A stretch of DNA of 64,000 nt from Candidatus Iainarchaeum sp. (GTDB lineage: Archaea > Iainarchaeota > Iainarchaeia > Iainarchaeales > JAZDDZ01). Numbering within the stretch: position 1 is the stretch's first letter; each line of letters opens with the position of its first letter. Position numbers and translations under genes: made by a program. The stretch covers positions 1 through 64,000 of the forward strand of contig JAZDDZ010000007.1 of assembly GCA_043809245.1 (NCBI GenBank), read 5' to 3'. Positions 17,101 through 64,000 of this stretch are shown here, in pieces. Below the pieces are notes generated by a model that worked only from the letters and a program-made list of their open reading frames with translations, had not been told where the DNA came from and made no database searches.

Positions 17101-17223
17101 AACAGGAGCTTAGAGCAGACTTTTGAAATTGCCTGGGATTTGCTGTCAACCCTGCCGAAAGAAGAGCTAAAGAGGGTCAAAGAAAAATTCATTGACCAAT
17201 ATTATAAGCCAAAAAAAGAGTGA
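14137..17223 (+). CDS. atpB: A1Ao ATP synthase subunit B, intein-containing (459-aa extein)
   Basis: [66 protein letters not shown]. Confidence 0.97.
14896..16602 (+). mobile_element. Intein with LAGLIDADG homing endonuclease in atpB (569 aa)
   Basis: TNY|CLDSGTEM...LTEDHKV...[22 protein letters not shown]|CEAL; motifs [10 protein letters not shown] and [10 protein letters not shown]; visibly more AT-rich than its exteins. Confidence 0.95.
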
Positions 17224-24814: not shown

Positions 24815-24907
24815 CCACAGAGAAATAGCCCCCGATAAACTAATATAAATAACCTTGATGTGTGGATAAAATGAATGGCGCAATTAGTGGCAAAAAAGGA
24901 AGTTCAG

Positions 24908-26086
24908 CTATTTTTTCAGGTTTTTTTTCAAAATGCGCTTCACATTTGTAATTATATGTTCCACTTCCTGTTCTTTCAACGCAGGTGATAAAGGAAGCGA
25001 GATTGTCCTGTCTGAAATGAATTTGGCGTTTGGAAAATCATTTTCACCATAATTAAAGTTTTCTTTGTAGTACGGGTGCAAATGAAGTGAAATGAAATGA
25101 ATGCCTGTGCCTATGCCCCTTTTATGAAGCATCTGCTGAAATTCGTCCCTTGAAATGCCCAGCATATCAATGTCAAGCAGAGGCGTGTATAGGTGAAATG
25201 AATGCTTGCTGTCCTCCTCGGGTTCTTTTGGCAAAATAAGCGGCAAACCGCTTAATTGCTCTTGATAGCTTTCCCAAATCTTCTTTCGGATTTTCCAGTT
25301 TTTTTCTATTCTTTTAAGCTGATGAATGCCCAACGCCGCCTGGAGGTCAGTCATGTTGTATTTGAAGCCAGGGTAAAGAACTTGATAATGCTTAAACCCG
25401 TTCCACGAATATCTTTCCCAGGCATCGGCGCTTATTCCATGCAGACTCATCACCCTGATTTTTTCAGCCCATTCGTCATTGTTGGTTGTAACCATGCCGC
25501 CTTCACCTGTAGTTATATTTTTCGTCACATAAAAGCTGAAACACGCAGAAGCCCCCACATTTCCAATTTTTTTCCCGTTTTTTGTTGACTCAATGGCATG
25601 CGCTGCATCACCGATGACGTTTAAGCCGTGCTTTTCTGCAATCTCAATAATCCGGTCCATCTCACAGGGCCTTCCAGCGAAGTGAACAGGCAGGATTGCC
25701 TTTGTTTTTTTTGTAATTGCCGATTCGATTGCGTCTTCGTCAATGTTCATTGAATCCTTATTCACATCAACAAAAATTGGTTTGGCTCCAACATGAACTA
25801 TCGTGTTGGCTGTTGCAGCAAAAGTTATGGGGGAAGTTATTACTTCGTCACCATTTCCTACGCCCGCCGCAATAAGTGAAAGGTGCATTGCCGCAGTGCA
25901 GGAATTAACCGCAATAGCGTGCCTGCAGCCTATATATTCCCTGAATTTTTTCTCAAAGGCCTGCGTTTTGGGTCCAGTGCCAAGCCAGCCTGTCTTAAGG
26001 CTATCGACAACTTCTTCGATTTCGTCATCCTCGATTTTGGGCTTGCCAAAAACAATGTAATCGCTTGCATTTTTGCTTATCATCAA
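24908..26086 (-). CDS. DegT/DnrJ/EryC1/StrS nucleotide-sugar aminotransferase
   Basis: NSCTAAMHL, DAAHA, FSFYVTKNITTGEGGM with PLP Lys, GFKYNMTDLQAALG. Confidence 0.95.
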   Translation of the reverse strand: MMISKNASDYIVFGKPKIEDDEIEEVVDSLKTGWLGTGPKTQAFEKKFREYIGCRHAIAVNSCTAAMHLSLIAAGVGNGDEVITSPITFAATANTIVHVGAKPIFVDVNKDSMNIDEDAIESAITKKTKAILPVHFAGRPCEMDRIIEIAEKHGLNVIGDAAHAIESTKNGKKIGNVGASACFSFYVTKNITTGEGGMVTTNNDEWAEKIRVMSLHGISADAWERYSWNGFKHYQVLYPGFKYNMTDLQAALGIHQLKRIEKNWKIRKKIWESYQEQLSGLPLILPKEPEEDSKHSFHLYTPLLDIDMLGISRDEFQQMLHKRGIGTGIHFISLHLHPYYKENFNYGENDFPNAKFISDRTISLPLSPALKEQEVEHIITNVKRILKKNLKK

Positions 26087-50784: not shown

Positions 50785-51813
50785 TCAAAGCTCCAGGAAT
50801 TTCGCGGTTGTTTTCTCCCTGTATTCCGGAAAGTTAACCATGCACTGGCCGGTGCAGTAAGGGAATCTTTTGAAGTCTTTCTCTATTTTTTTGTGGATTT
50901 CTTTGATGTCTTCATTCCAGATGTTGCCGTAAGAGTAAGGCACCGGGGGGCAGGGGGTTACTTCGCCGTTTGGAAGGATGTTTACGTGAAGGTTTCCCAT
51001 TCCCCTGCATAAGCCTGATTCCTTTTTGAATTCCACGGCAAGCTTGTCTGAAGCATTGAACCTGTTTCTCAGTTCATTCCTTTCCTTTGGCGAAAGGTTT
51101 TTTTCAAATGAATTGAATAGCCTTCCTGAAAGGATTGGAAGGAAAACAAAAACCCTTTTAACGCCAAGCCTTTGCCCAAGGGATTCAAGCTTTTCCAGCT
51201 TGTTTTTTTCGCCTTTCATTGCAAAACTCCATATCTCGGTGTTCAAGCCGAGCGCAGCCGAGGACTTAATTCCTGAAACAGCCTTTTCAAACAAGCCGGG
51301 CATTCCCCTGTTTGAATCATGCTCTTTGCTTTCCGCGCTGTCAAGGGAAAAAATCATGAGGAAAATTCCCGCCTTTTTCAGGCTTTCAAGGGTTTCGGGG
51401 GAAACAGTTGAGCCGTTGGTTACTATTGCCGGAAGCAGGCCCAAAGATTTTGCGTATGAGACAAGTTCAAGGGCGTCAGGCCGTAAAAGGAATTCCCCGC
51501 TGCAGAACACGACAATGCATGCGTGAAGCCGCAGGATTTTTTGCATGGCTTCCTTTGCCTGTGCAGTTGCCATATAGTCCTGCATTTTTTCCCTTTCGGG
51601 GAAAAGCTCATAGCAGTGCATGCACTTCAGGTTGCATTGCCTTGAAGGGGAAAGGAACACTGAGAAAAGACGCTGCATTCCGAGGAATTTCGCGGCATTG
51701 AATTTCAGTACGCGCGTTTTTTGCCTTGAATCAAGGCCCTTTAAGAAAAGCGCCTGCAACGCGGTTATTGTGTCGCCTGGAAAGCTGTCTTCCTTGGAAT
51801 TGAAAAAGCCCAT
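50785..51813 (-). CDS. Radical SAM enzyme with SPASM/twitch-like C-terminal domain
   Basis: CNLKCMHC, GEFLLR, TNG, SLDS...HD..RG, C-terminal CRGMG...NGEVTPCP...GNI. Confidence 0.92.
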   Translation of the reverse strand: MGFFNSKEDSFPGDTITALQALFLKGLDSRQKTRVLKFNAAKFLGMQRLFSVFLSPSRQCNLKCMHCYELFPEREKMQDYMATAQAKEAMQKILRLHACIVVFCSGEFLLRPDALELVSYAKSLGLLPAIVTNGSTVSPETLESLKKAGIFLMIFSLDSAESKEHDSNRGMPGLFEKAVSGIKSSAALGLNTEIWSFAMKGEKNKLEKLESLGQRLGVKRVFVFLPILSGRLFNSFEKNLSPKERNELRNRFNASDKLAVEFKKESGLCRGMGNLHVNILPNGEVTPCPPVPYSYGNIWNEDIKEIHKKIEKDFKRFPYCTGQCMVNFPEYREKTTAKFLEL

Positions 51814-51883: not shown

Positions 51884-52648
51884 ATGGGGTTCAGGACTTT
51901 ATTGTACGAGGCCATTGGAAGCACTGGCTTGGTTTACTTCAACAGGCCTGAAAAGATGAATTCGTTCAACAGCCTTATGGTAAGGGAAACAAGGGAGCTT
52001 GCAGAAAAGCTGAAAGCGGATGAAAGCATAAGGTCTGTTGTAATCAGCGGAAAAGGCAGGGCTTTTTCAACAGGAATTGACCTAAAGGAAATGAGTGGAT
52101 TGGGCAGGAAAGATTTCGGCAAATTAGTCAAAAGCGCAACAACCGCGTTCCTTGATTTCATGGGAATGCACAAGCCCGTAATCGCGGCTGTGAATGGCTA
52201 TGCGTACGGTGGCGGCGCGGAAATAGCGATAAACTGCGATTACGTTATAGCGGCAAGCAATGCCTCGCTTTGTTTTCCGGAAATAAATTTTGGATACGTG
52301 CCTTTTCTGGGCTCAATCCACAAGCTGCATGAATTGGCAGGAAAGCAGAGGGCAAATGAACTGGTCATGCTTGGAAAAAAAATCAATGCGAAAAAAATGC
52401 GTGAAATGGGAATTGCAAACGAAGTTACAGGGAAAAAAAACCTAATCAGGCGCGCGCTTCAGGTCGCCCAGGAAATGAACAAAAAGCCTTTGGGGGCAAT
52501 GAGCGGCGTTAAAAGGCTTGTGAGAAAAAGGGAAAGGAAAAAAATTTCAGCTGCGATAGCGGAAGAGCAGATGCTTTTCTGGGAATGCTATGAAAGCAAT
52601 GAGTGGAAAAAGGAAGCGGAAAAATTTCTGGGAAGGGAAAAAAAATGA
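51884..52648 (+). CDS. Enoyl-CoA hydratase/isomerase (crotonase family)
   Basis: NRPEKMNSF, FSTGIDL, KPVIAAVNGYAYGGGAE, CD, PEINFG (both catalytic Glu present). Confidence 0.92.
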   Translation: MGFRTLLYEAIGSTGLVYFNRPEKMNSFNSLMVRETRELAEKLKADESIRSVVISGKGRAFSTGIDLKEMSGLGRKDFGKLVKSATTAFLDFMGMHKPVIAAVNGYAYGGGAEIAINCDYVIAASNASLCFPEINFGYVPFLGSIHKLHELAGKQRANELVMLGKKINAKKMREMGIANEVTGKKNLIRRALQVAQEMNKKPLGAMSGVKRLVRKRERKKISAAIAEEQMLFWECYESNEWKKEAEKFLGREKK

Positions 52649-53625
52649 AGGCAGCGGGAATTTCCGGAACAGGCTCTTATCTCCCGGAAAGAATTGTTTC
52701 AAACAAGGAGCTTGAAAAATCGCTTGACACAAGCGATGAATGGATTTGGAAGCACATAGGCATAAGGGAAAGGAGGTTCGCGGAAAAAAACCAGCCGACA
52801 TCGCATCTCTCGCTTAAGGCCGCTGAAAAGGCATTGAAGGCAGCGGGAACAAGCGCGGAAGAGCTTGACCTGATAATAGTTGCAACCGCATCCCCGGACA
52901 TGCCCACGCCGAGCACTGCATGCATTCTGCAGGACAAGCTCAAGGCAAACAAGGCAGGGGCATTTGACTTGAACAATGCATGCACTGGATTTGTTTACGG
53001 ATTGGCTGCTGGAGCCAAATTCATTGCGGATGAAAGCTGCAAAAAAGTTTTATTGGTGGGAGCGGAAACACCGCACGCGTTCATGGACCCAAAGGACCGC
53101 GGAACATATGTTTTTTTCGGTGACGGCGCAGGAGCGGTTGTGTTAAGCGAAACAGAGAAAGGAAGGGGCGTGCTTGGAAGCTATCTGAGAAGCGACGGCT
53201 CAGGCGCAATGGATTTGGGCGTGCCCGGGGGAGGCACAATGATGCCGCCGTCAATTGAAACAATCAAGAACAGGCAGCACTTCATTAAAATGAACGCGCA
53301 AAAAATAAAGGAATTTGTAATAAAAGCGTTTCCGGATTCAGTGCACGGAACCCTGCGCAATGCGGGTTTAAAGCTGGAGGACGTGGACATGATTATTCCG
53401 CACCAGGCGAACGCGCGGCTCATAGAATACGGAATGAAAGCATTGGGATTGCCAATGGAGAAAGCCTTCATTAACATGCACAAGTACGGCAACACAATTG
53501 GAGCTTCAATTCCCATTGCATTGGATGAAGCCGTTCACGAAGGAAAGATAAGCAAGGGGGACCTTGTTTTGCTTGTGGGATTCGGAGGAGGCTTAAGCTG
53601 GGGCGGAGTAGCATTAAGGTGGTAG
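52645..53625 (+). CDS. fabH: 3-oxoacyl-ACP synthase III (KAS III)
   Basis: GTGSYLP, DTSDEWI, NACTGF (Cys), FGDGAGA, PHQAN (His), GNT (Asn), GFGGGLSWG; ATGA overlap with the crotonase. Confidence 0.93.
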   Translation: MKAAGISGTGSYLPERIVSNKELEKSLDTSDEWIWKHIGIRERRFAEKNQPTSHLSLKAAEKALKAAGTSAEELDLIIVATASPDMPTPSTACILQDKLKANKAGAFDLNNACTGFVYGLAAGAKFIADESCKKVLLVGAETPHAFMDPKDRGTYVFFGDGAGAVVLSETEKGRGVLGSYLRSDGSGAMDLGVPGGGTMMPPSIETIKNRQHFIKMNAQKIKEFVIKAFPDSVHGTLRNAGLKLEDVDMIIPHQANARLIEYGMKALGLPMEKAFINMHKYGNTIGASIPIALDEAVHEGKISKGDLVLLVGFGGGLSWGGVALRW

Positions 53626-53626
53626 G

Positions 53627-54370
53627 ATGAATGAATTCTCTGGAAAGGTTGCAATAGTCACAGGAGCTTCTGGCGGAATAGGGAAAGCGATTGCCGTGGC
53701 TTTAGGGGAACAAAAGGCAAAAGTAGTGGTGAATTACAACGGCAATGCATTGGGGGCAAATGAAACAAAGGCGGAAATAGAAAAGCTTGGGGGAAAGGCA
53801 ATTGCGGTTAAAGCTGATGTAAGCAAGCCGGCTGAAGTTGAAAAAATGGTTGAAGCCGCGGTAAAGGAATTCGGCGGCATTGATTTTTTGGTGAACAATG
53901 CGGGAATCACCGCGGATGCAACTCTGAAAAACATGCGCGCGGAGCAATGGAACAGGGTAATGGAAACAAACTTGAACGGCACATTTAACTGCACCAAGGC
54001 AGTGCTTCCGTTAATGCTGGGAAAAGGAAAGGGAAGCATTGTAAACATTTCATCAATAAGCGGCAGCAGGGGAAGCTTCGGGCAATGCAATTATTCCGCG
54101 GCAAAGGCCGCGGTCATTGGCTTCACGAAATCGGTTTCAAGGGAAACCGCGGGAAAAGGCGTTAGGGTCAACGCCATATGCCCCGGCTATGTCAAGACAA
54201 AAATGACTGAATCGGTTCCAAAAGAATTGATTGAAAAATTTGTGGAAATGATTCCAATGAAAAGGCCAGGAACAACCGGGGAAATCGCGGAAGCAGTTCT
54301 ATTTTTTCTTTCAGAAAAATCAAGCTACATCAGCGGGCAGGCGCTGAATGTCGACGGCGGATTCATGTAA
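53627..54370 (+). CDS. fabG: 3-oxoacyl-(ACP/CoA) reductase, FabG/PhaB-like SDR
   Basis: VTGASGGIG, NNAGITAD, NISS, GQCNYSAAK, VNAICPGY, GQALNVDGG. Confidence 0.88.
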   Translation: MNEFSGKVAIVTGASGGIGKAIAVALGEQKAKVVVNYNGNALGANETKAEIEKLGGKAIAVKADVSKPAEVEKMVEAAVKEFGGIDFLVNNAGITADATLKNMRAEQWNRVMETNLNGTFNCTKAVLPLMLGKGKGSIVNISSISGSRGSFGQCNYSAAKAAVIGFTKSVSRETAGKGVRVNAICPGYVKTKMTESVPKELIEKFVEMIPMKRPGTTGEIAEAVLFFLSEKSSYISGQALNVDGGFM

Positions 54371-54382
54371 AGGTGCAATGAA

Positions 54383-54994
54383 ATGCCAAAGGTCGTTGGA
54401 ATAAACGGAAGCGCAAACAAAAAAGGCAACACTTTTTTCCTGTTGAATGAATGCATTGAGTCGGCAAAGGAAAACGGCATGGAAACAGAACTGCTTCAGC
54501 TAGCTGAATTCAATGTAAAGCCATGCGACCACTGCCTTGAATGCGTTAAGGGAAAAAAATGCCCAATAAAAGACGATTTTGCAAAAATTGAAAAAAAAAT
54601 GATTGAAGCTGATGCGATAATTTTTGCAACGCCTGTTTACTCCGCGGGAATCTCACAGGCAATGAAGAATATAATGGAGAGAAGCTATCCCTTAAGGCTC
54701 GGGGGGCTAAAGCTTAAGGACAAATTCGCTTCATTCATATGCATGGGCGGCCTTGTGCATGGCTTCCAGGAGCTGGCGGCACTTGAACTCAATGCGTTCG
54801 CGCTATACCATGGAATGCTTGTATTCGGAAACGCTGCATTCGAAGACCCCTTGAAGCCTTATTCAATGGGGCCTTTTGTAATCGGCTCACAGCAAAGGGA
54901 CGACGGCCTGATGCATTTCGTGAAAAAAGACAATTATGCGGTTGAAGGCGCGAAAGCGCTTGGAAAAAGGGCCGCGGAGCTTTTGAAAAAATAA
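54383..54994 (+). CDS. Iron-sulfur flavoprotein / multimeric flavodoxin
   Basis: GINGS...GNT, CDHCLECVKGKKCPIKDD (CX2CX2CX5C), ADAIIFATPVY. Confidence 0.88.
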   Translation: MPKVVGINGSANKKGNTFFLLNECIESAKENGMETELLQLAEFNVKPCDHCLECVKGKKCPIKDDFAKIEKKMIEADAIIFATPVYSAGISQAMKNIMERSYPLRLGGLKLKDKFASFICMGGLVHGFQELAALELNAFALYHGMLVFGNAAFEDPLKPYSMGPFVIGSQQRDDGLMHFVKKDNYAVEGAKALGKRAAELLKK

Positions 54995-55414
54995 TCAGCC
55001 GATGAACTTGTCGGTTGAAGTTTCCACAAGAACAGTTTCCCCAAACTGGTTCCTGAATTCTGTTGAAAAAACAGCAATCCTTTTTTTCCCTATCTTTTCA
55101 ATGCACTCAATTGTCGCGGTGATTGTGTCGCCTGCCTTAACCGGCTTTAAGAACCTGACCTTTTGCTTCATGTAAACATAGCCTGAACCGGGGAGCTTTG
55201 AGGAAGCAAGGTCGCTTAACAATGCAATTAGAAGAGCTCCGGGCACAATCGTTTCCCGGAAAATTGTTTTTTTGGCAAAAGCCAAGTCATTATGGATCGG
55301 GTTGCTGTCGCCTAGAAGGCGGTTTGATTCACGCACATCCTTTTCAGTGAAAGTGCGGGTGGTTGAAGCGGTTTGCCCTATCTTGAGCTCATCAAAAGGA
55401 ATTTCCGCATTCAT
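54995..55414 (-). CDS. MaoC/PhaJ-type (R)-specific enoyl hydratase (hotdog fold)
   Basis: GDSNPIHND..FAKKTIF...IVPG, LPG.G.VY, FLKPVKAGDTI. Confidence 0.9.
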   Translation of the reverse strand: MNAEIPFDELKIGQTASTTRTFTEKDVRESNRLLGDSNPIHNDLAFAKKTIFRETIVPGALLIALLSDLASSKLPGSGYVYMKQKVRFLKPVKAGDTITATIECIEKIGKKRIAVFSTEFRNQFGETVLVETSTDKFIG

Positions 55415-55858
55415 TCATTTCACCATCAGATCGCTTAACAGCTTTTCAGTGGAAGAAATCGAAACCAGCAGTTCGCCCCTGCTATTTCTTATCTCTGTTT
55501 TGTCACTGAAGCGCCTTTTTTCAAGGTCAACTGAAACAATTTCACGGGTGATTAACAGCTCATCATCAATCCTTGCGGGTTTCAAAAAATTCGCCTCATA
55601 GCTTAAGGCAACTGAGTTTACGCCGTTAAGCGGATACGCGCTTGCCGCAATGCCAAGCAAATGCATTCCGTGAAGGATTCTTGAGCGAAAAATTGTTTTG
55701 GAGCAATAAGCTTCATCCAAATGCAGCCTGTTGAAATCACGGCTTAATTCCGCGTAACGCCTTACCCCGCTTTCGCTGACCTTTTTCTTCAGGGAAAATT
55801 TTTGGCGGGGCTTCAGCTGCTCAAGCGACAGAATATGCGAAGTGCTTTCTCCAGCCAT
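55415..55858 (-). CDS. MaoC/PhaJ-type (R)-specific enoyl hydratase (hotdog fold)
   Basis: SRDFNRLHLDEAY...IF..RILHGM, FLKPARIDDEL; start placed at ATG 55858. Confidence 0.88.
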   Translation of the reverse strand: MAGESTSHILSLEQLKPRQKFSLKKKVSESGVRRYAELSRDFNRLHLDEAYCSKTIFRSRILHGMHLLGIAASAYPLNGVNSVALSYEANFLKPARIDDELLITREIVSVDLEKRRFSDKTEIRNSRGELLVSISSTEKLLSDLMVK

Positions 55859-55911
55859 AATTAAACTTGCGCCCAAAAATTCTTTTAATAAGAATGCACG
55901 AATCTCAGCTT

Positions 55912-56949
55912 ATGGGAAGCCTGAAAGAAGGTTACAGTTATTGCCGCTACGAAAAAGGAGACGGGAAAGGAATAAACCGGCTAATAAATGAAGCGTTTAA
56001 AGGGAAAAGGGAGAAGGGCTACTTTGAATGGCAGTATTTGGAAAATCCAGCGGGAAAGCCTGAGATAAGGCTGTTGAAGGAAAGCCACAACGAAACAGTA
56101 GGGCACGCCGCGGCAATTCCCCTGGCATTCAGTTTTTTCGGTGAAAGGAAAAAATTTTTACAGGGAATGGACGGCGCGCTTGCAGCCAATGCGAGGGGAA
56201 AAGGGCAATCAAGGCCTTTCTTTGAAAAATTCATGGAAGAGGTTTCAGGCAAAACCGAAGTCTACTTTCTTTTTCCCAACAAGGCACACTTTGAGAGGAT
56301 AAAAAATCAGCAGGGCTTCAGGCACAAGCCGCTTTATAGGCTGGTTAAGCCATTGGATTCAACCGCAATTTTGGGAAAAATTTCCAGAAACAAAAGTTTC
56401 ACCAGGCTTATGAAGCCTTTGGGGGATGTGCTGTTTAAAGTTTTTTTTCCGCTGAAAAAAGCAGCGCTTGAAGAAGGCGAGGAAATAAAAAAAATTGAAA
56501 AATTTGATGAACGGGCTGATGTGCTGTGGGAAAAAACCAAAAGCGGGAAAAAAATAATTGCTGAAAGGAAAAAGGATTTTCTCAACTGGAGGTATTTCGG
56601 CGGAGTGAAGAAATACGAAGCGTTTTCTTTGGAAAATGCGGGCGCAATGGAAGGGTACATTGTTTTCGCACAGGACGGAAAAACAGGGAACTTTGCTGAC
56701 CTCGCTGCAACAGGCAAAAAAGCAGGGGAAAAACTTCTCTCGCATGCGCTTGAATATCTCGCGGGAAAAGGGTGTGAAGCGGCTTTCTTTTACACGCTTG
56801 ACGATGCGCTAAAGGAAAGACTGAAGAAAGCAAGTTTCATTGAAACAAAAACAGACGCCTATTTTTCTTTCATTAAAACAGGCGGAATTGAAAGGGAAAT
56901 AAGCGCAGATGACTGGTTCATTAACCTCGGGGACAGCAACCAGGTTTAA
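55912..56949 (+). CDS. Tandem GNAT-family N-acyltransferase
   Basis: FEWQYLENPAG, VGH, ARGKG CoA-binding motif, FPN, FLNWRY, EGYIV, W....GD; start placed at ATG 55912. Confidence 0.78.
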   Translation: MGSLKEGYSYCRYEKGDGKGINRLINEAFKGKREKGYFEWQYLENPAGKPEIRLLKESHNETVGHAAAIPLAFSFFGERKKFLQGMDGALAANARGKGQSRPFFEKFMEEVSGKTEVYFLFPNKAHFERIKNQQGFRHKPLYRLVKPLDSTAILGKISRNKSFTRLMKPLGDVLFKVFFPLKKAALEEGEEIKKIEKFDERADVLWEKTKSGKKIIAERKKDFLNWRYFGGVKKYEAFSLENAGAMEGYIVFAQDGKTGNFADLAATGKKAGEKLLSHALEYLAGKGCEAAFFYTLDDALKERLKKASFIETKTDAYFSFIKTGGIEREISADDWFINLGDSNQV

Positions 56950-56958
56950 GGTGAAAAA

Positions 56959-57774
56959 ATGTGCGCAAAAATCATTGACACTATGGCTTCCTGGATTTAC
57001 TCCAAGCCATTGCTGAGAAAAAAATGGTACGGTTATCTTTCAAGGCTTGACCGTGAAGGGCAGGTTACCTTCATGAACCTAGGCTATGCAGGCATCGGCG
57101 CGGAAAAAGGAATGCCCGTGGAAAAAAAAGGAGAACATGAAAGCTACGGAGAGCTGCTGTACAATCGCGTTGCAGGCAACGCAAAACTTTGTGGGCTTGA
57201 TGTTTTGGAGATTGGCTGCGGAAGGGGCGGAGGCGCAGCATACACAATGAAAAAATTCATGCCAAAAAAAATGGTTGCAGCAGACCTTTGCAAAGAGGCA
57301 ATTGATTTCTGCAAAAAAAATTATGAAATTAAAGGGCTTTCATTTGAAAGGGAGGACGCGCAGAAATTAAGCTTTGCAAACAGCTCTTTTGATTCGGTTC
57401 TAAGCGTTGAATCATCGCACGGCTATGCGTCAATGGAAAAATTTCTCAGGGAAGTTAACAGGGTGCTGAAGCAAGATGGGTGCTTTTTGTTCGCTGATTT
57501 CAGGGGAAAAAATGAATTGAAAAAACTGCACGCGCAAATGGAGCGCGCGGGATTTGAATTTGAAAAACAGGAAATGATAACAGAGAATGTAGCCAAAGCG
57601 ATTGAACTTGACAGCGAAAGGAAACAGGCGCTGATTGAAAGGCTTGTGCCAAAGCGGCTGAGAAAGCCTTTCGTGCTGTTTGCGGGAATAAAGGGCACGC
57701 CAATGCATGAAGCACTGGTTAAAGGCGAAATTGAATACGTGAGCGCAGTTCTGCGGAAAACAGAAGCGCCCTGA
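56959..57774 (+). CDS. Class I SAM methyltransferase, resembling mycobacterial lipid O-methyltransferases (Rv2952-like)
   Basis: FMNLGY, LY, VLEIGCGRGGGA, DAQKL.F...SFD.V.SVESSHGY, FADFR. Confidence 0.75.
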   Translation: MCAKIIDTMASWIYSKPLLRKKWYGYLSRLDREGQVTFMNLGYAGIGAEKGMPVEKKGEHESYGELLYNRVAGNAKLCGLDVLEIGCGRGGGAAYTMKKFMPKKMVAADLCKEAIDFCKKNYEIKGLSFEREDAQKLSFANSSFDSVLSVESSHGYASMEKFLREVNRVLKQDGCFLFADFRGKNELKKLHAQMERAGFEFEKQEMITENVAKAIELDSERKQALIERLVPKRLRKPFVLFAGIKGTPMHEALVKGEIEYVSAVLRKTEAP

Positions 57775-58828
57775 GAAAAAAATCCTTCAAACCGCTGCCT
57801 GAAAAAAGCATTGTTTTCCTCTGCGTTGTTTTTGCGCCCCGCAGTTTTTTTGTTTCAATGTCTGATGAAAGCAAATTTAGTTTGCTAAAGCCGTTGTCGA
57901 ACGCAAAGCGAAGCGGCGCATAATAGCTTGTCTCGAAAAAAGCGAAGTTTCCGCCAGGCAAAGCCCCGGAGCCGCTTGAAAAAAAGGTGAGCTCCCTGTT
58001 CCCTGCGAAATAAAGCGAAAAACACAAAATCGAGCCGTTTTTTTCAGCCAAAAAGAAACGCGCTTTTTCCCCCATGTTTCCCTGTATTGAACGGAAAAAT
58101 GATTCAGTGAAGGGGCTTTTGCAGCCGTTGTGCTTAAAGAATGTGTTGTCCGCGAGTGATGAAAGCAGGCCGCTGCCCTCGAAGGAAATGGAAGAAAAGA
58201 ACCTTGTTCCAGAGGCCTTGTTTGCATTCATCTCCTTTATTACTTTCTGCCTGCGATTTTTAGAAAGGCTTGAAAGAAACGCATCAAAAGAAGCCGCACT
58301 GCAGTCTATCTCAGCGCAGTCAAATGCTCCCTTTGAATAAAAGCCGTTATTTGAAAGCAGGGATTCAAGCAGAGCGCCTTTACCTGAAACATAAGGCGCT
58401 GCAATGAACTGGTTTTTTTTGCGTGCCTTTTCCTTAATTGCTTCAAGCGCAAGGGAAAAAAGTTTTTCACGGTCTGCCGAAAATGCCGAGTTGACCAAGA
58501 ATCGCGATTCAAGGCAGTAAGGGGAAAAAACGCTTAAGTAAGAGTTGTCTTTGAATCCGAGAAAGCGGAAAAAAGGGGAAAGGGTTCCGAGTGTTTTTGA
58601 AAAGGGAATGAATTCCGCGCCATGCATTTCATAGCAGGGAAGGAACGCGGCAAGGGTTTTGCCTGAGAAAACCGCGGCATGCATTGGCTTGGCTGGAAGG
58701 CACGCCGCTTCCTCTATTGCCTTGAACCATTCAAATGAAAAAAAAAGGGAATCGCTTAAAGGGTTAAGCTCTTTACTTTCCAGTTCGCTTATTGAAGCCA
58801 AAAGCCTTACTGAAAAATTTTTTTCCAT
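57719..58828 (-). CDS. FemAB-like/GNAT fold acyl- or aminoacyl-transferase
   Basis: FF..EWF..IE, SFDAFLSSLSKNRRQKVIKE, F..FF, YYAPL..A, KKLRGA. Confidence 0.7.
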   Translation of the reverse strand: MEKNFSVRLLASISELESKELNPLSDSLFFSFEWFKAIEEAACLPAKPMHAAVFSGKTLAAFLPCYEMHGAEFIPFSKTLGTLSPFFRFLGFKDNSYLSVFSPYCLESRFLVNSAFSADREKLFSLALEAIKEKARKKNQFIAAPYVSGKGALLESLLSNNGFYSKGAFDCAEIDCSAASFDAFLSSLSKNRRQKVIKEMNANKASGTRFFSSISFEGSGLLSSLADNTFFKHNGCKSPFTESFFRSIQGNMGEKARFFLAEKNGSILCFSLYFAGNRELTFFSSGSGALPGGNFAFFETSYYAPLRFAFDNGFSKLNLLSSDIETKKLRGAKTTQRKTMLFSGSGLKDFFLRALLFSAELRSRIQFRL

Positions 58829-58831
58829 AAA

Positions 58832-59731
58832 TCATTTCCCCGCGGATTTAACTTTTTCAAAAAACGCTTTTCTTTTTTTCAGCATTTTCGGCAGCAATGG
58901 AAGCGCGGAAAATTTTCCCTTGATGAATGGAATGCCTTCCCCAAAGTAAAAGTTTCCAGCCAACTCTGAAAAAAAATCAGCCAAAATGAACGGCAGCCTT
59001 GAAAAAAATTCCCCCGCGCGCAAATTCTTGAAAATAACAAGAAGGCTGTTCCTTGAAATAAGAAAGGGGCGCATTGACCCCATTCCGCGCGTTGTTGCAG
59101 ACCCTTCATGGACCGCAACCGCTTTTTCTGCAAAAGCACAGCGCCAGCCCAAGCGCCTTGCCCTCAAGCCGATGTCGCAGTCCTCGTGGTAAATGAAAAA
59201 ATCATTGTCATAGATTTCGCCTGAAACGCTTATTTCTTCAAGCATTTTTTTGCGCCACAGGCACGCGCCGTCATCAGGGCAGAAAACCTTTGAGGCATCA
59301 TACGTTGGAACAAGCCTGAAGCCACGGAGCAATTCAAGGCCAACACACTCAATTTTTCCTGAAGAAAAAAAACGCGTGCATGAAACCATTCCAATGCGTT
59401 CATCTGACCCTGCCGCATTAAGCATATGCCTAAGATAATCTTTATGCAGCACAACGTCGTTGTTAACTGTTGCAATGAATTCGCCTTTGGATGCCGCGAT
59501 TGCCTGGTTGTTTGCAGCGCAGAAACCCAGATTTGATTTGTTTTTTATGAGCCTGGCTGATGGAAAATTTTTTTCAATGAATTCAGCAGAGCCGTCGCTT
59601 GAGCCGTTGTCCACAGCAATTACTTCAAAATCACTGAATGACTGCGCTTGAATCGCTTCAAGGCATTTGCCAATCCGTCCAATGCCATTAAGGTTAACGA
59701 CAACGAATGAAACAAGCGGGTCCACTGTCAA
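58832..59731 (-). CDS. Glycosyltransferase family 2
   Basis: VSFVVVNLNG, VDNGSSDGS, NLGFCAANN, NND, FFIYHEDCD. Confidence 0.92.
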   Translation of the reverse strand: MTVDPLVSFVVVNLNGIGRIGKCLEAIQAQSFSDFEVIAVDNGSSDGSAEFIEKNFPSARLIKNKSNLGFCAANNQAIAASKGEFIATVNNDVVLHKDYLRHMLNAAGSDERIGMVSCTRFFSSGKIECVGLELLRGFRLVPTYDASKVFCPDDGACLWRKKMLEEISVSGEIYDNDFFIYHEDCDIGLRARRLGWRCAFAEKAVAVHEGSATTRGMGSMRPFLISRNSLLVIFKNLRAGEFFSRLPFILADFFSELAGNFYFGEGIPFIKGKFSALPLLPKMLKKRKAFFEKVKSAGK

Positions 59732-60732
59732 AAAAGCACTCTCCTGAATTTAATGGCAGCCAAAAAAGTGAAAAAAAGCTCTGCAAAGGCGACAAGCCAA
59801 ACCACGAAAAAAGACGAGGCAAGTGAAAAGGGATGGAAAAAAACTCTTTTCATAGAAGCGCCCTGCTTGAGCCTAGTGTTAAGAAAAACCGAGAGAGAGT
59901 AGAATGCAAGCAAAACCAATGCCCTTAAAAAAAACGGGTAAGGGAAAAAAAGAAAAAATGCAAGGGAAAAATAAAAGGGGTAATTCGGCACTAGAACAGG
60001 GTTGAATAAGCCAAGGAAAGCGCGCTCCTTTGCATAAACTAAAGGGTGTTTTGCCGCGAGCAAAACATTCCAGTAAGAGGTTTTCAGGTTAAGGCGCTTT
60101 GAAAGGAATGAGAATGCATTGGAGGGAATAACGGAATGGAAAACAAGCGAGCCGGGGGAAAATTTTATGATGAATTTTTTTTCTTTTGCACGCCAGGCAA
60201 GGTCAGTGTCCTCGCACATCGGAGAGGAAAAAACAGGGTCAAAGCCCCCAAGCGAATCAAAGCAGGGCTTTGAATAAAAAATATTGCAGGTAAGAAAGTT
60301 TCCGCCTGAAAGGTTCTCGCACTGGAAGGAAATTGCGCAGACTTTTTCGGGAGAAGCAATTTTTGTAGCGCCCTCAACGATGTCAACTTTTTCTTTCAAA
60401 AAGATTTTTTTTGCGGAGGAAAGCCATTCAGAATCCGCAGTGCAGTCGTCATCAATGAACGCGAGAATTTTCCCTTTTGCGGCTGCAGCGCCCGCGTTGC
60501 GCGCTGCCGCGGGCCCCTTGTTTTCCTGCCTGAGAAAAGCCAGGGAAAAGCGCGGTGAAAAAGAGGCAAGGGATTCATGCAATGGTTTTCTTGAGCCGTC
60601 ATCAACAACAATCACTTCAAATTCATTTGGAGGAATGCTTTGCCTTTCAAGCGATGAAAGGCAGTTGAAGAGAAGCTCGGCGCGGTCCTTTGAGGGAATC
60701 ACCACGCTGAAAAAAGGCGCTTTTTCAGGCAT
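59728..60732 (-). CDS. Glycosyltransferase family 2 with C-terminal TM helices
   Basis: SVVIP, VVDDGS, GPAAARN, FIDDD, GGFD...EDTDL. Confidence 0.92.
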   Translation of the reverse strand: MPEKAPFFSVVIPSKDRAELLFNCLSSLERQSIPPNEFEVIVVDDGSRKPLHESLASFSPRFSLAFLRQENKGPAAARNAGAAAAKGKILAFIDDDCTADSEWLSSAKKIFLKEKVDIVEGATKIASPEKVCAISFQCENLSGGNFLTCNIFYSKPCFDSLGGFDPVFSSPMCEDTDLAWRAKEKKFIIKFSPGSLVFHSVIPSNAFSFLSKRLNLKTSYWNVLLAAKHPLVYAKERAFLGLFNPVLVPNYPFYFSLAFFLFFPYPFFLRALVLLAFYSLSVFLNTRLKQGASMKRVFFHPFSLASSFFVVWLVAFAELFFTFLAAIKFRRVLF

Positions 60733-61884
60733 TCAGTTTTCACCCAAAATTTTTTCGTAAAAGGAAAGTGTTTTCTGGGAAATTTTGCCCCAATCAAATT
60801 CTTCCAGGCCAGAGGAAGCGCTTATTGAAAGCCTTTTCCTCAAGGCGCTGTCTTCCGCGAGCAGGGAAATTTTTTCCGCAATCGCTTCAGCGGTTAAAGG
60901 GACAACAAAGCCGTTTTCGCCTTCGCGCACCAAATCAGAGGCAGCATTGCCAGCGTGAGCAACAGTTATCAGCGGCAGCCCACAGGCAAGGGATTCAAGC
61001 GAGGAAATGCTGAAGCCCTCGCGAGTTGAAGGAAGAACTGAAACACCGCAGGATTTAAGGAAAGAGAACAACTGCAGCTTTTCTGGAAAAAAATCAAGAA
61101 AGGAAACACTGTTGGAAATGTTTAGGGAAGATGCGAGTTTCACCAGTTTTTCCTTTTCAGGGCCATTGCCTATTATCGCCGCGGTCTGCGTTATCCCTTT
61201 TTCTTTCAGTATGGCTACTGCTTTCAAAAGCAAATCAAGGTTTTTGTGCTTCGCAAGGCGGCCGAAAAAAACCAGGTCAGCGCCTTTGCCGGAAGGCAAT
61301 GCCTCTTTTACCGCCGTGAAGTCAAATCCGTTCTCCATAAGCTCGATTTTTTCAGGGGGAATTCCGAGAGTGGAAAGATTCGATGCAACGCGTTTTGAGC
61401 CGGCCATGTTGTGTTCCGAGAAAGCCGCTGCAAGCCTTTCCGTTGCGGATCCGGCAAAGCCAGCCGGGCCGAGATAGCTGAGCCAGTATCGCAGGCCCCA
61501 GACCTCCTGCCACATCACGGCAAGAGGAACTGAATTCTTATCCGCAAAGCGTTTCGCGGGAAAAAAGGGAAGGAATGGAAAGGCATTGCAGTCAATCACG
61601 TCAAACTTTTTTCCATTAAGTGCGCTGCGGAGTGCGAGGGAAAATTTTAACGGCTCCACAATTGTCCTTTTCCCGGAAAAATTGTAAATTCCGCGGTAAG
61701 AGCAGATGCCATGATAATTGATGCCGTCAAGAAAAAGGTCTTTTTCGCCTTGCCAGCACTTGGATGAAAAAAAATGAATCTCGTGCCCTTGTGCTGCAAG
61801 GCGTTTTCCGATTTCATAGTTGCGCAATTCCCCGCCCCCCACAACAAAGGGATATGCGAGGTCGTAAATGAATGCGATTTTCAT
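60733..61884 (-). CDS. Glycosyltransferase family 4
   Basis: YPFVVGGGE, GRLAKHKN, PSTREGFSISSLESLACGLP. Confidence 0.92.
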   Translation of the reverse strand: MKIAFIYDLAYPFVVGGGELRNYEIGKRLAAQGHEIHFFSSKCWQGEKDLFLDGINYHGICSYRGIYNFSGKRTIVEPLKFSLALRSALNGKKFDVIDCNAFPFLPFFPAKRFADKNSVPLAVMWQEVWGLRYWLSYLGPAGFAGSATERLAAAFSEHNMAGSKRVASNLSTLGIPPEKIELMENGFDFTAVKEALPSGKGADLVFFGRLAKHKNLDLLLKAVAILKEKGITQTAAIIGNGPEKEKLVKLASSLNISNSVSFLDFFPEKLQLFSFLKSCGVSVLPSTREGFSISSLESLACGLPLITVAHAGNAASDLVREGENGFVVPLTAEAIAEKISLLAEDSALRKRLSISASSGLEEFDWGKISQKTLSFYEKILGEN

Positions 61885-62570
61885 GAAAAGCGCGCCCCCA
61901 AAATAAAGAAAAAATGCTTTAAGCCGTCCCGCAAGGAATTCATTTTTGAAACCCCTGAACGCGCGGAATAAGTGATTGGAACCTCTGAGATTTCAAGTTT
62001 TTGCTTTTTAGCATTCACAAGCATTTCCAATGCGAACTGCATTCCCAACTGCCTGAACTCGGCTTTCTCCAGAAAAGACTTTTTGAACGCGCGGAAGCCG
62101 GAGTGGGTGTCGGAAAGTGAAGAGGAAAAAAAAAGATTGAAAACAAATGTGAGCAAAGGGTTGCCAATGAATTGGTGCAGGGGCTTCATTGCGCCTGGCG
62201 CAATTTTTCCCTTGAAGCGCGAGCCGATTACAAAATCAGCAGAGCCGGAGTCAATTGGCGAGAGAAGCGATGGAATTTCGGAAAAATCGTAAGTGCCGTC
62301 TGAGTCGGCCATCACAATTGTTTCACCTTTCGCTTCATTGAAGCCAAGGAGATATGCCGCGCCGTAGCCGCGCACGTTCTGGTGCAAAACCTTGACGCCC
62401 AAAGCGCGCGCTATTTCAGCCGAGCCATCATTTGAGCCGTTGTCCACGACAATGATTTCGCCGTTGATTGCATTGGCCCGTAAAACGGATTTTATTTTCT
62501 CAATGCAGCGGGAAATGGTTGGCTGTTCGTTAAGGCAGGGAAGAACGACTGAGACAAATTTTTGGTTCAT
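61881..62570 (-). CDS. Dolichol/polyprenol-phosphate glycosyltransferase (GT2, DPM1-like)
   Basis: VSVVLPCLNE, RGYGAA, DSDGTY, VIGSRF, SDTHSGFRAF, EVPITYSAR.G.SKM. Confidence 0.9.
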   Translation of the reverse strand: MNQKFVSVVLPCLNEQPTISRCIEKIKSVLRANAINGEIIVVDNGSNDGSAEIARALGVKVLHQNVRGYGAAYLLGFNEAKGETIVMADSDGTYDFSEIPSLLSPIDSGSADFVIGSRFKGKIAPGAMKPLHQFIGNPLLTFVFNLFFSSSLSDTHSGFRAFKKSFLEKAEFRQLGMQFALEMLVNAKKQKLEISEVPITYSARSGVSKMNSLRDGLKHFFFILGARFS

Positions 62571-62572
62571 GC

Positions 62573-63673
62573 TTAATGGAATTTTTTCCCGAAAAGCTTA
62601 ACTGCATTAATAACGCGTGAAACCTCGGCAGCGGAAAGGGCGGGGTGCAGGGGAAGCGAGAGAATGCGCTTCCATTCGCGCATTGCCACAGGAAGGTTTG
62701 CGTGCGGAAATTTTTTGTAAAAAGAGAAAAGCGGCAGGGGCTTGTAGTAAACAGTGGATTCTATTTCCTTGGAGCGCAGGAATTCGGATAATGCATCGCG
62801 CTTTCCGTTCAAAACCTTTAAAGTGTAACAGTAATTTGAACTTTTAACGTGTTTTCTCTGCTCCAATGGTTCAAGCCAGCCAAGCGAAGAAAAAGCCTCA
62901 TCGTATTGGCGCGCTATTTCCGCGCGCCTTTTGTTCATGAATTTGAGCTTTTTCAGCTGCTCTAAGCAGATTGAGGCGTCAATGTCGTTCATCTGAGCCT
63001 TGAAGCCTAACTGCTTCACATTGTAAGATAAAAAATCCTTTTCGCGCTCAACGCCCAGAAAGCGAAGCCGTTCAAGCGCAGGCTTTAGCGAAGCGCGGCT
63101 GAAGCATATTGCCCCTGCATCGCCGGCTGAAATGTTTTTTCCGCCGCGAAAAGAAAAACAGGAAGCCGCGCCAAAAGAACCTGCTTTTTTTCCACGGAAC
63201 TCTGCGCCGGTGGCGTGCGCGCAGTCCTCAACCAATGGAATTCCATTGCGCTTTGCGATTTTTTTGAATTCATTCATCTCGCAGCAGTGGCCGCGGTAAT
63301 GCACCAAAAGAATCGCCTTTGTGCGGGGGGAAATTTTTTCCTCAACCGCGGAAGGGGAAAGGTTTAATGTGCCGGGCTCAACGTCAGCGAAAACAGGCTT
63401 TGCACCCGCAAAAATAATCGCGTGCGCAGTTGAAACAAAAGTCATTGGAGTGGTTATCACCTCTGAGCCTTTAACGCCCCGGGCTTCAAGCGATAAATGC
63501 AGCGCGGAAGTGCATGAATCGGTTCCCAAGGCAAAGCGCGTGCCGATAAAGCTTGAGAATTTTTTTTCGAATTCCCTTGTTTTAGGGCCGGAGATGATGT
63601 AACGGCTTTTCAGCACGCGTGCGACTGCCTTTGCTTCCCTTGAATCGAAAAACGGCTCTGAAAGGCGGATCAT
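62573..63673 (-). CDS. DegT/DnrJ/EryC1/StrS nucleotide-sugar aminotransferase
   Basis: DSCTSALHL, EDCAHA, FSFRGGKNI with PLP Lys, GFKAQMNDI, SLPLHP. Confidence 0.93.
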   Translation of the reverse strand: MIRLSEPFFDSREAKAVARVLKSRYIISGPKTREFEKKFSSFIGTRFALGTDSCTSALHLSLEARGVKGSEVITTPMTFVSTAHAIIFAGAKPVFADVEPGTLNLSPSAVEEKISPRTKAILLVHYRGHCCEMNEFKKIAKRNGIPLVEDCAHATGAEFRGKKAGSFGAASCFSFRGGKNISAGDAGAICFSRASLKPALERLRFLGVEREKDFLSYNVKQLGFKAQMNDIDASICLEQLKKLKFMNKRRAEIARQYDEAFSSLGWLEPLEQRKHVKSSNYCYTLKVLNGKRDALSEFLRSKEIESTVYYKPLPLFSFYKKFPHANLPVAMREWKRILSLPLHPALSAAEVSRVINAVKLFGKKFH

Positions 63674-63733
63674 GAAATGAATGGGAAGCGATAATTATAA
63701 GTGGGTTTCCGTGAAAAAAATTGTTGTGGAAAA

Positions 63734-64000
63734 ATGTTTTCGGAAATAAAAGGCATCGGGGCGCATTTGCCCGGGAAGGAATTGGACAACGAGGAAGTAA
63801 TTGCAATAAAGGGCATTGACACCTCTGACAAATTCATCAGGGAAAGGTTCGGCGTGCAAAAGAGAAGGGTTATTGAAGGCGGTGAAAAGAATTCTGATTT
63901 GGGCGCGGAAGCGCTGAAAAAAGCAGCAGAGAAAGCGGGAATCACGCTGAAAGAAATTGACGCGATTGTCTGCGCGACAATGACTCCTGAAAAGCCCTCG
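63734..64000 (+). CDS. fabH: Second KAS III (FabH-like), truncated by the window edge
   Basis: Translated manually (not in the ORF track): MFSEIKGIGAHLPGKELDNEEV...DTSDKFIRERFGVQKRR...SDLGAEA...IDAIVCATMTPEKPS, matching the FabH N-terminus. Confidence 0.85.
   Translation, partial: MFSEIKGIGAHLPGKELDNEEVIAIKGIDTSDKFIRERFGVQKRRVIEGGEKNSDLGAEALKKAAEKAGITLKEIDAIVCATMTPEKPS

Follow-up and report, generated by a model that had tools for sequence, protein, structure and literature searches.

The window analysed here, meaning the whole stretch of 64,000 nucleotides, is the beginning of contig JAZDDZ010000007.1 (C7) in assembly GCA_043809245.1 of Candidatus Iainarchaeum sp. Its right-hand part carries a gene cluster in which two FabH condensing enzymes, a FabG reductase, hydratases and a flavoprotein are found together with candidate acyl- and methyltransferases, a sugar aminotransferase and glycosyltransferases (GTs). 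The host is a DPANN-type archaeon labelled 'Diapherotrites', whose relatives have genomes of 0.5–1.5 Mb. Judged by sequence, the best explanation of the cluster is that an archaeal surface-glycosylation locus took up FabH and FabG together from a bacterial fab operon, minus fabD and acpP.

Gene content of the locus

Genes were called from a map of open reading frames (ORFs) and Pfam scans, with NCBIfam models used for subfamily placement. The whole contig has 78,726 bases, so FabH2 could be read past the edge of the window. The genes are:

28861–48993, minus strand: giant surface protein of 6710 aa, a single ORF with Laminin_G_3, Big_3_3, Big_13 and CARDB domains (LamG, Ig-like)
49137–50732, minus strand: polytopic membrane protein, GT-C-like (STT3/PMT_2/ArnT-like) by structural neighbours only, candidate glycan transferase
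50785–51813, minus strand: radical S-adenosylmethionine (SAM)/SPASM enzyme (Pfam Radical_SAM and SPASM)
51884–52648, plus strand: crotonase-fold enoyl-CoA hydratase (ECH_1, E 5e-51)
52645–53625, plus strand: FabH1, condensing enzyme of the ketoacyl synthase (KAS) III type (ACP_syn_III and ACP_syn_III_C)
53627–54370, plus strand: FabG-type 3-oxoacyl reductase of the short-chain dehydrogenase/reductase (SDR) family (adh_short_C2, E 2e-71)
54383–54994, plus strand: FMN_red-family flavoprotein with a 4-Cys motif (FMN_red, E 6e-30)
54995–55414, minus strand: MaoC hot-dog (R)-hydratase/dehydratase, subunit a (MaoC_dehydratas, E 7e-19)
55415–55876, minus strand: MaoC hot-dog subunit b (MaoC_dehydratas, E 8e-16)
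55912–56949, plus strand: tandem-GNAT protein of 345 residues, candidate acyl-CoA N-acyltransferase (weak Acetyltransf_9 match and model fold)
56959–57774, plus strand: SAM methyltransferase, nearest to lipid O-methyltransferases (Methyltransf_11)
57719–58828, minus strand: FemAB_like GNAT-fold protein (PF04339, E 1.6e-17, residues 13–334)
58832–59731, minus strand: GT2 glycosyltransferase (Glycos_transf_2, E 6e-23)
59728–60732, minus strand: GT2 glycosyltransferase (Glycos_transf_2, E 7e-25)
60733–61884, minus strand: GT4 glycosyltransferase (Glycos_transf_1, E 1e-35)
61881–62570, minus strand: GT2, AglJ/dolichyl-phosphate hexose transferase-like (Glycos_transf_2, E 8e-31)
62573–63673, minus strand: DegT-family sugar aminotransferase (DegT_DnrJ_EryC1, E 5e-108)
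63734–64000 within the window, gene end at contig position 64672, plus strand: FabH2 (Pfam and NCBIfam FabH)

A first-pass annotation of this stretch had listed two FabH, FabG, a crotonase, two MaoC proteins, a methyltransferase, four GTs and DegT, and Pfam finds all of them where it had placed them. Both of its GNAT-fold genes are also present, the tandem-GNAT gene through Acetyltransf_9 and FemAB_like through PF04339, and the second fabH that it saw at the window edge is recovered in full, from 63734 to 64672, once the sequence beyond 64000 is read. The coupled operon of crotonase, fabH, fabG and flavoprotein genes that it described is borne out by an ATGA overlap shared by the crotonase stop and the FabH1 start, and by gaps of only 1 base between FabH1 and FabG and 12 bases between FabG and the flavoprotein gene.

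The middle third (2237 aa) of the giant surface protein has no Pfam match, and its tetranucleotide make-up lies at the 95th–98th percentile of the genome. The adjoining membrane protein also has no Pfam match above threshold; its structural neighbours in the Atlas, at TM 0.70–0.78, include STT3 and PMT_2 clusters, a lead only. For the radical SAM/SPASM enzyme the best NCBIfam matches are NirJ2/AhbD-like and far below cut-offs. An ORF antisense to the FabH2 start (63670–64017, minus strand, 115 aa) was set aside as probably spurious, the tblastn 'orthologues' found in relatives merely mirroring the conservation of FabH2.

Enzymes of the acyl module and their missing partners

Both FabH proteins exceed the cut-offs of the FabH models NF006829 (249 bits) and TIGR00747 (292.1 bits), FabH1 with 385.1 and 357.3 bits and FabH2 with 344.4 and 321.9 bits, respectively. 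Aligned with and numbered after E. coli K-12 FabH, the residues C112, H244 and N274, as well as R151, are invariant in all 11 archaeal FabH (6 FabH1 and 5 FabH2), and the intact Cys-His-Asn triad recognised in the first pass is confirmed for both proteins of the window. FabH1 is 62–65% identical to two 'Ca. Diapherotrites' proteins and then 55% or less to FabH of Bacillota (50–55% to housekeeping FabH of Bacillota and others), while FabH2 has eight relatives at 54–63% identity (three named, all 'Ca. Diapherotrites') followed by proteins at 46% or less; for both, the closest relatives that carry a name are assigned to 'Candidatus Diapherotrites archaeon'. A quick tree (SH-aLRT support only, no outgroup) was built from the 11 archaeal rows and 39 of the 117 matches of the FabH1 search (<75% identity; 78 rows dropped). 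The six archaeal FabH1 form one clade (SH-aLRT 97) that lies among bacterial FabH and is sister (84) to three metagenome proteins, and the five FabH2 form a separate, long-branched clade (SH-aLRT 100).

The archaeal sequences were compared with 223 bacterial FabH, and three positions at which basic residues are nearly universal in bacteria have changed:

FabH position 36: basic in 222 of 223 bacterial and 5 of 11 archaeal proteins
FabH position 214: basic in 221 of 223 bacterial and 0 of 11 archaeal proteins
FabH position 249: basic in 222 of 223 bacterial and 3 of 11 archaeal proteins

Altogether, 101 alignment columns are at least 90% conserved in bacterial FabH, and 10 of these are lost in the archaeal set, including 36, 211, 213 and 249. 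FabG, which keeps the Ser-Tyr-Lys residues S138, Y151 and K155, has changed in a similar manner: position 129 holds Arg in 12 of 13 FabG from bacterial fab operons but Gly in all 6 archaeal proteins, and R172 is replaced by Lys in 5 of the 6, the window's FabG among them, and by Ser in 1. The losses in FabH and FabG appear to fit chemistry on coenzyme A (CoA) rather than on acyl carrier protein (ACP), the connection with ACP being presumptive. FabG scores 285 bits on the equivalog model (cut-off 296) and 257 bits on the subfamily model NF009466 (cut-off 222). Position 87 of FabH, a putative marker for long primers, carries a small residue in every one of the 11 archaeal proteins (T, S or C); this lead was set aside, as Thr is also found in 34 of 117 bacterial matches.

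Of the 19 bacterial loci fetched with FabH1, 14 have fabD after fabH, and 13 of the 14 then continue with fabG, which in L040 is a partial gene at the end of a contig. In the cluster described here FabG directly follows FabH, with no fabD between them. A bacterial donor carrying the whole cassette was sought and not found, all 19 being bacterial FabH loci and none having other genes of the cluster. The metagenomic sister clade, the nearest outside the archaea, shares D214 and N249 with archaeal FabH; no fab genes lie near FabH in any of its nine loci, and none of the other cluster genes are found there. The clade has a GC content of 47–61%. Two of its loci were scanned (L055, 10001–13723; L062, 7838–11719), and in both a gene for a family III CoA-transferase and one for an MFS transporter come after FabH.

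The first-pass annotation saw no ACP, FabD, FabF or enoyl reductase and proposed a search of the genome for ACP, phosphopantetheinyl transferase (PPTase), FabD and acetyl-CoA carboxylase (ACC). The rest of the contig contains none of the former four. The lack of ACP, FabD and FabF extends to the whole genome (G000), which comprises 1.48 Mb in 55 contigs and is 91.8% complete with 0.89% contamination; for enoyl reductase, no conserved candidate was seen outside the cluster. The proposed search likewise found nothing: PP-binding (ACP) and Carboxyl_trans (ACC) are absent from all eight FabH-bearing genomes, though found in 11 and 12, respectively, of 14 known genomes used as controls, and ACPS (PPTase) and Acyl_transf_1 (FabD) have no match above threshold in the three genomes G000, G027 and G045. 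Searches by tblastn with E. coli PlsX, FabD, AcpP and FabF returned nothing from G000 and, from the loci of relatives, a single weak FabF match in L026 that was read as a neighbouring thiolase; in the 19 bacterial loci the same approach recovered AcpP in 13 and FabD in 14. With respect to FabF/FabB, the ketoacyl-synt model matches only the thiolase beside hydroxymethylglutaryl-CoA (HMG-CoA) synthase, other matches being weak and sub-threshold. A hidden ACP in the cluster was rejected, the ORF after FabH2 (64676–65023, minus strand) looking like a winged-helix regulator, with a weak MarR match, and ORF 63670–64017 being antisense to FabH2. G000 has no second SDR resembling FabG, and no paralogues of the crotonase, FabG, MaoC, FMN_red or GNAT proteins.

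The locus can be set against type II fatty acid synthesis of bacteria (FAS II; plsX-fabH-fabD-fabG-acpP-fabF). As in that system, both FabH proteins score above the FabH model cut-offs and have the Cys-His-Asn triad, FabG retains Ser-Tyr-Lys, and FabH1, 50–55% identical to FabH of Bacillota, nests among bacterial FabH. It differs in that fabD, acpP, fabF and plsX were not found at the locus or in the genome, though seen in 13–14 of the 19 control loci, in the loss of the basic residues at FabH 36, 214 and 249 and of FabG R129, and in a context of glycosylation rather than lipid synthesis. By sequence the proteins are FabH and FabG family members, yet ACP, FabD, FabF and ACC, the components that define FAS II, were not found.

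The flavoprotein carries the motif C48-x2-C51-x2-C54-x5-C60, its four Cys are invariant in 3 of 3 orthologues, and motifs of this kind are known from iron-sulfur flavoproteins; the protein may reduce enoyl-CoA or may supply electrons to the neighbouring radical SAM enzyme. By eye, the GD-x-NP-x-H motif of MaoC subunit a, the MaoC Asp/His pair and both crotonase glutamates are visible, and the crotonase matches generic enoyl-CoA hydratase models, all below equivalog cut-offs.

An AF2 model of the tandem-GNAT protein (pLDDT 95.3) matches N-myristoyltransferase (2p6e; Z 24.3, root-mean-square deviation 4.4, 310 residues aligned), MAB_4324 (7q3a; Z 23.0) and Eis-like proteins (Z 21–22; 2hv2, Z 22.3), and the top Foldseek matches are N-myristoyltransferases (E 3e-16, TMq 0.60–0.65). 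The fold match to the known tandem GNATs (N-myristoyltransferase, Eis, MAB_4324 and MshD) covers the whole 345 residues at 8–16% identity, but there is no family-level sequence match past the weak Acetyltransf_9. The protein belongs to an uncharacterised family of ∼350 aa proteins with 14,610 representatives at E ≤1e-3, the nearest Atlas clusters being mostly bacterial, and by its modelled fold is a candidate CoA-dependent N-acyltransferase. The methyltransferase is nearest to NCBIfam models for phthiotriol/phenolphthiotriol dimycocerosates methyltransferase (E 4e-58) and fatty-acid O-methyltransferase Mtf2 (E 1.5e-53), both below cut-off; the sequence of this lipid-type enzyme would fit a methoxy or methyl-ester decoration. 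FemAB_like has no NCBIfam match. The best models for DegT are the C4 aminotransferases PseC, ArnB, WecE-type and LegC, all below cut-off, and the AglJ-like GT2 reaches 157 bits on TIGR04182 AglJ against a cut-off of 325.

Conservation in related genomes

True FabH, counted at E ≤1e-30 across 215 genomes and 79 genera of the phylum, is present in 8 genomes and 4 genera, G000 included. Within the order, 44 of 61 genomes have a match to FabH1, and beyond G000 true FabH was found only in G027 and G045, both from genus g28, at 62–64% identity. The other matches are at ∼25% identity, to proteins of ∼350 aa like that of the HMG-CoA-synthase-like gene on C9 of G000.

The genes are linked in relatives, and the co-occurrence check that the first pass had called for is answered by recurrence of the core in genera g28 and g68. 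The order in G045 and G027 is giant ORF, hypothetical protein (hyp~550), crotonase (G027 only), FabH1, FabG, FMN_red, MaoC, MaoC, GNAT and Wzx, and continues with a Fer4 protein, a B12-radical SAM enzyme, DegT, GT2, GT4, FabH2, GT4 and GT2. Genus g68 (G138, G140 and G141) has FabH1, FabG, a small PNPOx-like flavoprotein, the MaoC pair, GNAT, Wzx and GTs, and the module is adjoined by a radical SAM gene, a 2-oxoacid:ferredoxin oxidoreductase resembling indolepyruvate oxidoreductase (IOR), a hypothetical protein (hyp~530) and a long ORF. The flavoprotein slot is here filled by a PNPOx-like protein of 141 aa. Orthologues of the GT-C-like membrane protein flank the module in G045, G027 and G138, and in the same three genomes the giant ORF adjoins a hyp~540 gene and FabH1. 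A radical SAM enzyme 26–27% identical to that of the window adjoins FabH in G138 and G140.

Individual genes are retained to different extents. MaoC orthologues, with a second MaoC-like ORF beside the first, and tandem-GNAT orthologues occur in g28 and g68, as does the AglJ-like GT2 (41–55% identity). DegT has orthologues in g28 (45–47%), the GT2 at 58832–59731 has 37% identical orthologues in G045 and G027, and the crotonase is 40% identical in G027 and missing from the G045 locus. The methyltransferase and FemAB_like were not found in the loci of relatives. Wzx-type flippases are found in the clusters of relatives and not in this window. The conserved core consists of the GT-C-like protein, FabH1, FabG, a small flavoprotein, the MaoC pair, the tandem GNAT and glycan genes; the crotonase is optional, and the methyltransferase and FemAB_like are extra genes that only this genome has.

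Two further arrangements were observed. In genus g61 (G113 and G114; short contigs) FabH2 occurs alone, with neither FabH1 nor FabG, and a 387-aa bacterial-type thiolase comes after it; in locus L034 (G113:C82, 863–4710) FabH2 is preceded by a 498-aa AsnB-like amidotransferase, and the other locus of this genus is L026 (G114:C9). In L033 (G138:C13, 12500–15258) the indolepyruvate-type 2-oxoacid:ferredoxin oxidoreductase, made up of a 602-aa TPP/Fer4 protein and a 189-aa POR-gamma protein, stands beside radical SAM, FabH and FabG genes. This enzyme may be a source of the acyl-CoA primer or extender in g68. No counterpart was found in G000 by tblastn.

Proposed route and alternatives

We give about even chances to the cluster being a CoA-based, ACP-independent module that makes beta-hydroxy, enoyl or methoxy acyl-CoA, from which the tandem-GNAT protein would transfer the acyl group to an amino sugar that DegT makes for a surface glycan. 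FabH1, perhaps with FabH2 for another primer or a second round, would condense an acyl-CoA primer with a malonyl thioester to 3-oxoacyl-CoA, and FabG would reduce this to (R)-3-hydroxyacyl-CoA. The MaoC pair would interconvert (R)-3-hydroxyacyl-CoA and 2-enoyl-CoA, and the crotonase could add water back to enoyl-CoA, giving the (S)-alcohol. The product may then be O-methylated in this genome by the lipid-type methyltransferase. The tandem-GNAT protein would then move the acyl group from CoA to the amine set by DegT on a keto-sugar linked to nucleoside diphosphate (NDP) or dolichol, the GT2 and GT4 enzymes would assemble the glycan on a polyprenyl carrier, and the GT-C-like membrane protein would pass it to a surface acceptor. 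The adjacent giant protein is plausibly that acceptor, of the glycan or of the acyl group. We infer the substrates, chain length, acceptor and order of steps in this scheme, together with the role of the flavoprotein.

The link to glycans is drawn because the DegT protein resembles C4 aminotransferases, a GT2 is AglJ-like, the neighbouring membrane protein is GT-C-like and the tandem GNAT has a CoA-dependent fold. The first-pass annotation had suggested a pathway making short hydroxy- or methoxy-acyl groups for surface glycans or glycolipids, possibly CoA-based, and this is supported in part. Its CoA part is favoured by the residue changes, and its methoxy part agrees with the methyltransferase, though this gene is not in the conserved core.

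Several points weigh against the CoA-based glycan acylation route. The absence of ACC leaves no visible source of malonyl-CoA, and this counts because a FabH with Cys-His-Asn is expected to need a malonyl thioester; the eight FabH-bearing genomes are metagenome-assembled and 63–92% complete. No enoyl reductase is conserved, as ADH_zinc_N, the model for a medium-chain dehydrogenase/reductase protein, occurs only in G000 (outside the cluster, on C8) and in none of the 4 other cluster-bearing genomes searched, and NMO (the FabK family) has only weak partial matches in longer proteins; any reduction or extension of the chain would be hypothetical. FabH 36, 214 and 249 and FabG 129 and 172 are what we take to be ACP-docking sites, reportedly described by Zhang and colleagues in J Biol Chem in 2001 and 2003. 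Some of these basic residues may also touch CoA, FabH1 of the window retains R249, and FabH position 87 adds little information. The tandem-GNAT fold is as near to protein N-myristoyltransferase as to small-molecule and sugar acetyltransferases, and the known hydroxyacyl sugar N-acyltransferases are left-handed beta-helix enzymes and are not known to include GNATs. Lastly, there is no NDP-sugar 4,6-dehydratase in the cluster, genes of the epimerase/dehydratase family being located on C50, C51 and C23.

Several known systems resemble parts of the proposed route. Anthrose operons encode an enoyl-CoA hydratase, a glycosyltransferase, an aminotransferase and an N-acyltransferase, and N-(3-hydroxybutanoyl) amino sugars occur in O-antigens and capsules. 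Such loci likewise combine a DegT aminotransferase, a crotonase, an acyl-CoA-dependent transferase and glycosyltransferases, but the host here is archaeal, the acyl-CoA would apparently be made de novo via FabH and FabG, and the transferase is a tandem GNAT whereas AntD-type enzymes are left-handed beta-helix proteins. NphT7 acetoacetyl-CoA synthase is a KAS III-like enzyme that uses malonyl-CoA in place of malonyl-ACP. A FabH fold with a decarboxylating triad acting on CoA substrates is the behaviour proposed here, but the archaeal proteins form their own clades and are much closer to housekeeping FabH, a comparison in which the NphT7 sequence itself was not included.

The ACP-independent synthase of Sulfolobus acidocaldarius is reported to be composed of a ketothiolase/DUF35 pair, a ketoacyl-CoA reductase, a hydroxyacyl-CoA dehydratase and an enoyl-CoA reductase that uses NADPH (bioRxiv 10.1101/2024.07.05.601840). 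As described there, it shares with the route proposed here CoA thioesters without ACP, an SDR reductase and a MaoC-type dehydratase, but relies on a non-decarboxylating thiolase on a DUF35 protein and an enoyl-CoA reductase of the medium-chain dehydrogenase/reductase family, whereas the condensing enzymes here are of FabH type and no reductase of that family is conserved among cluster-bearing genomes. An earlier proposal of an ACP-independent archaeal pathway also assumed non-decarboxylating thiolases (PMC3533463). The cluster contains no thiolase, and the single one of G000 lies with HMG-CoA synthase; DUF35 itself was not searched for. Literature searches returned no description of FabH in DPANN archaea in such a cluster, although Figs S32–36 of the 2024 preprint might list related archaeal sequences, and searches on hydroxybutanoyl sugar loci, anthrose and PF04339 gave no description of this cluster.

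The main rival is a longer acyl chain serving as a lipid anchor, which we consider unlikely. Repeated cycles of FabH, FabG, MaoC and the flavoprotein would build medium- or long-chain acyl-CoA, and the GNAT would lipidate a protein, for example the giant one, or make a glycolipid anchor. Two FabH, two MaoC and a redox flavoprotein do exceed the needs of one hydroxybutyryl unit, the module keeps its place next to a giant surface protein, the methyltransferase comes closest to enzymes that O-methylate phthiotriol and fatty acids in mycobacterial lipids, and the small residue at FabH 87, the lead set aside above, might allow larger primers. N-myristoyltransferases also head the structural matches of the GNAT, but MAB_4324 and Eis-type proteins follow within 2–3 Z-score units. 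FabH initiates chains and does not elongate them, and no FabF/FabB-type synthase was found; no enoyl reductase is known among FMN_red and PNPOx-type proteins, and the family in that slot differs between genera. The want of a malonyl-CoA source tells against repeated cycles as well, and DegT, Wzx and the GTs, which are co-conserved, would be needless for pure protein lipidation. Synthesis of membrane phospholipids was rejected as unlikely, PlsC-type proteins being absent from 5 of 5 genomes and PlsX from G000 by tblastn; PlsY was not searched for.

Rather improbable, in our estimate, is that a DPANN lineage has remade bacterial FabH and FabG as an ACP-free and biotin-carboxylase-free Claisen system for medium-chain, beta-functionalised acyl groups, which the N-myristoyltransferase-like GNAT would attach to the giant adhesin or its glycan. 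Its extender would come from an unrecognised source of malonyl-CoA, such as a CoA-transferase or 2-oxoacid:ferredoxin oxidoreductase with oxaloacetate as substrate. If true, a fatty-acyl lipid anchor would be produced by archaea whose own membranes are isoprenoid.

It is also doubtful that the genes encode an independent small-molecule pathway (polyketide-like, or for a hydroxyacid, cofactor or signal) that just happens to neighbour glycosylation genes within a surface or accessory island of variable content. Stand-alone FabH with D214 and N249 does occur outside a glycan context, beside the CoA-transferase and transporter of L055 and L062, FabH2 of g61 adjoins thiolase and AsnB-like genes on its short contigs, and the IOR-like oxidoreductase adjoins the g68 module. 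The crotonase, methyltransferase, FemAB_like and B12-radical SAM genes also vary between genera. However, in all 3 genera with FabH1 the module has the GT-C-like gene on one side and GNAT, Wzx and GT genes on the other, and none of the genes for export, tailoring or regulation that are usual in metabolite clusters were seen in the window.

Ordinary catabolism or fermentation of CoA esters (beta-oxidation, or butyrate or hydroxybutyrate metabolism) is very improbable. The crotonase, an SDR of 3-hydroxyacyl type and MaoC are activities of those pathways too, and FabG scores nearly as high on acetoacetyl-CoA reductase models (262 bits, below cut-off). Nevertheless, acyl-CoA dehydrogenase (Acyl-CoA_dh_1) is absent from 5 of 5 cluster-bearing genomes searched, G000 has no AMP-binding acyl-CoA synthetase, and its only thiolase (C9, ∼40870) adjoins HMG-CoA synthase. 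The crotonase is translationally coupled to FabH1, a biosynthetic enzyme whose decarboxylating triad is intact, and the genes lie within a glycosylation locus. Beta-oxidation, which the first pass had named as a way in which its proposal could fail, is accordingly not indicated, there being also no paralogues of the module in G000.

That mis-assembly or mis-binning attached a bacterial fragment to an archaeal contig, for which the 40–55% identity of FabH1 and FabG to bacterial fab-operon proteins and the restriction of FabH to just 8 of the 215 genomes might speak, is extremely improbable and was rejected on synteny and composition: the same arrangement is found in independent assemblies of two other genera, and three 6-kb chunks over 48–66 kb fall at the 84th–85th percentile of 207 background chunks in tetranucleotide distance, with GC inside the range of the genome's contigs. 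An archaeal host is further indicated by an archaeal 16S-tRNA-23S operon on contig C42 of the same genome and by housekeeping genes on the same contig, where the window encodes CoaBC, an A-type ATPase operon, PGK, cupin-type PGI and GAPDH. The 20-kb single ORF and tightly packed genes span both parts, the archaeal FabH1 proteins make up one clade and the FabH2 proteins another, and one GT2 is AglJ-like.

To our knowledge, archaea are thought to lack fatty-acid chemistry of the FabH type, and the only archaeal route that has been characterised relies on a thiolase with DUF35. The locus would represent a bacterial FabH-FabG pair domesticated in a reduced-genome archaeon in which no carrier protein, PPTase, FabD or ACC was found, and losses at conserved basic surface residues are what would be expected if the enzymes had switched from ACP to CoA. 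It would offer a natural, testable case of FAS II enzymes uncoupled from ACP, of use for engineering CoA-based pathways, and points to acyl groups decorating the surface structures through which DPANN cells make contact with their hosts.

Other features of this genome were noted. The A and B subunits of the A-type ATPase (10860–14135 and 14137–17223, plus strand; 1091 and 1028 aa) each carry an intein with a LAGLIDADG endonuclease. Just past the window, C7 encodes at 68927–77972 a 914-aa LVIVD-repeat/VWA protein as well as a set resembling that of archaeal type IV pili, with one T2SSE ATPase and two T2SSF membrane proteins. A second sugar-modification set is located ∼25 kb upstream of the cluster (23522–26086), and includes a GT2, a hexapeptide-repeat (WcaF-like) acetyltransferase and a DegT protein closest to ArnB and PseC. 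G000 also has at least 7 B12-binding radical SAM paralogues, five on C51 and two on C50, among GT2, GT4, DegT and epimerase-family genes, and these contigs therefore appear to hold further large glycan-modification loci.

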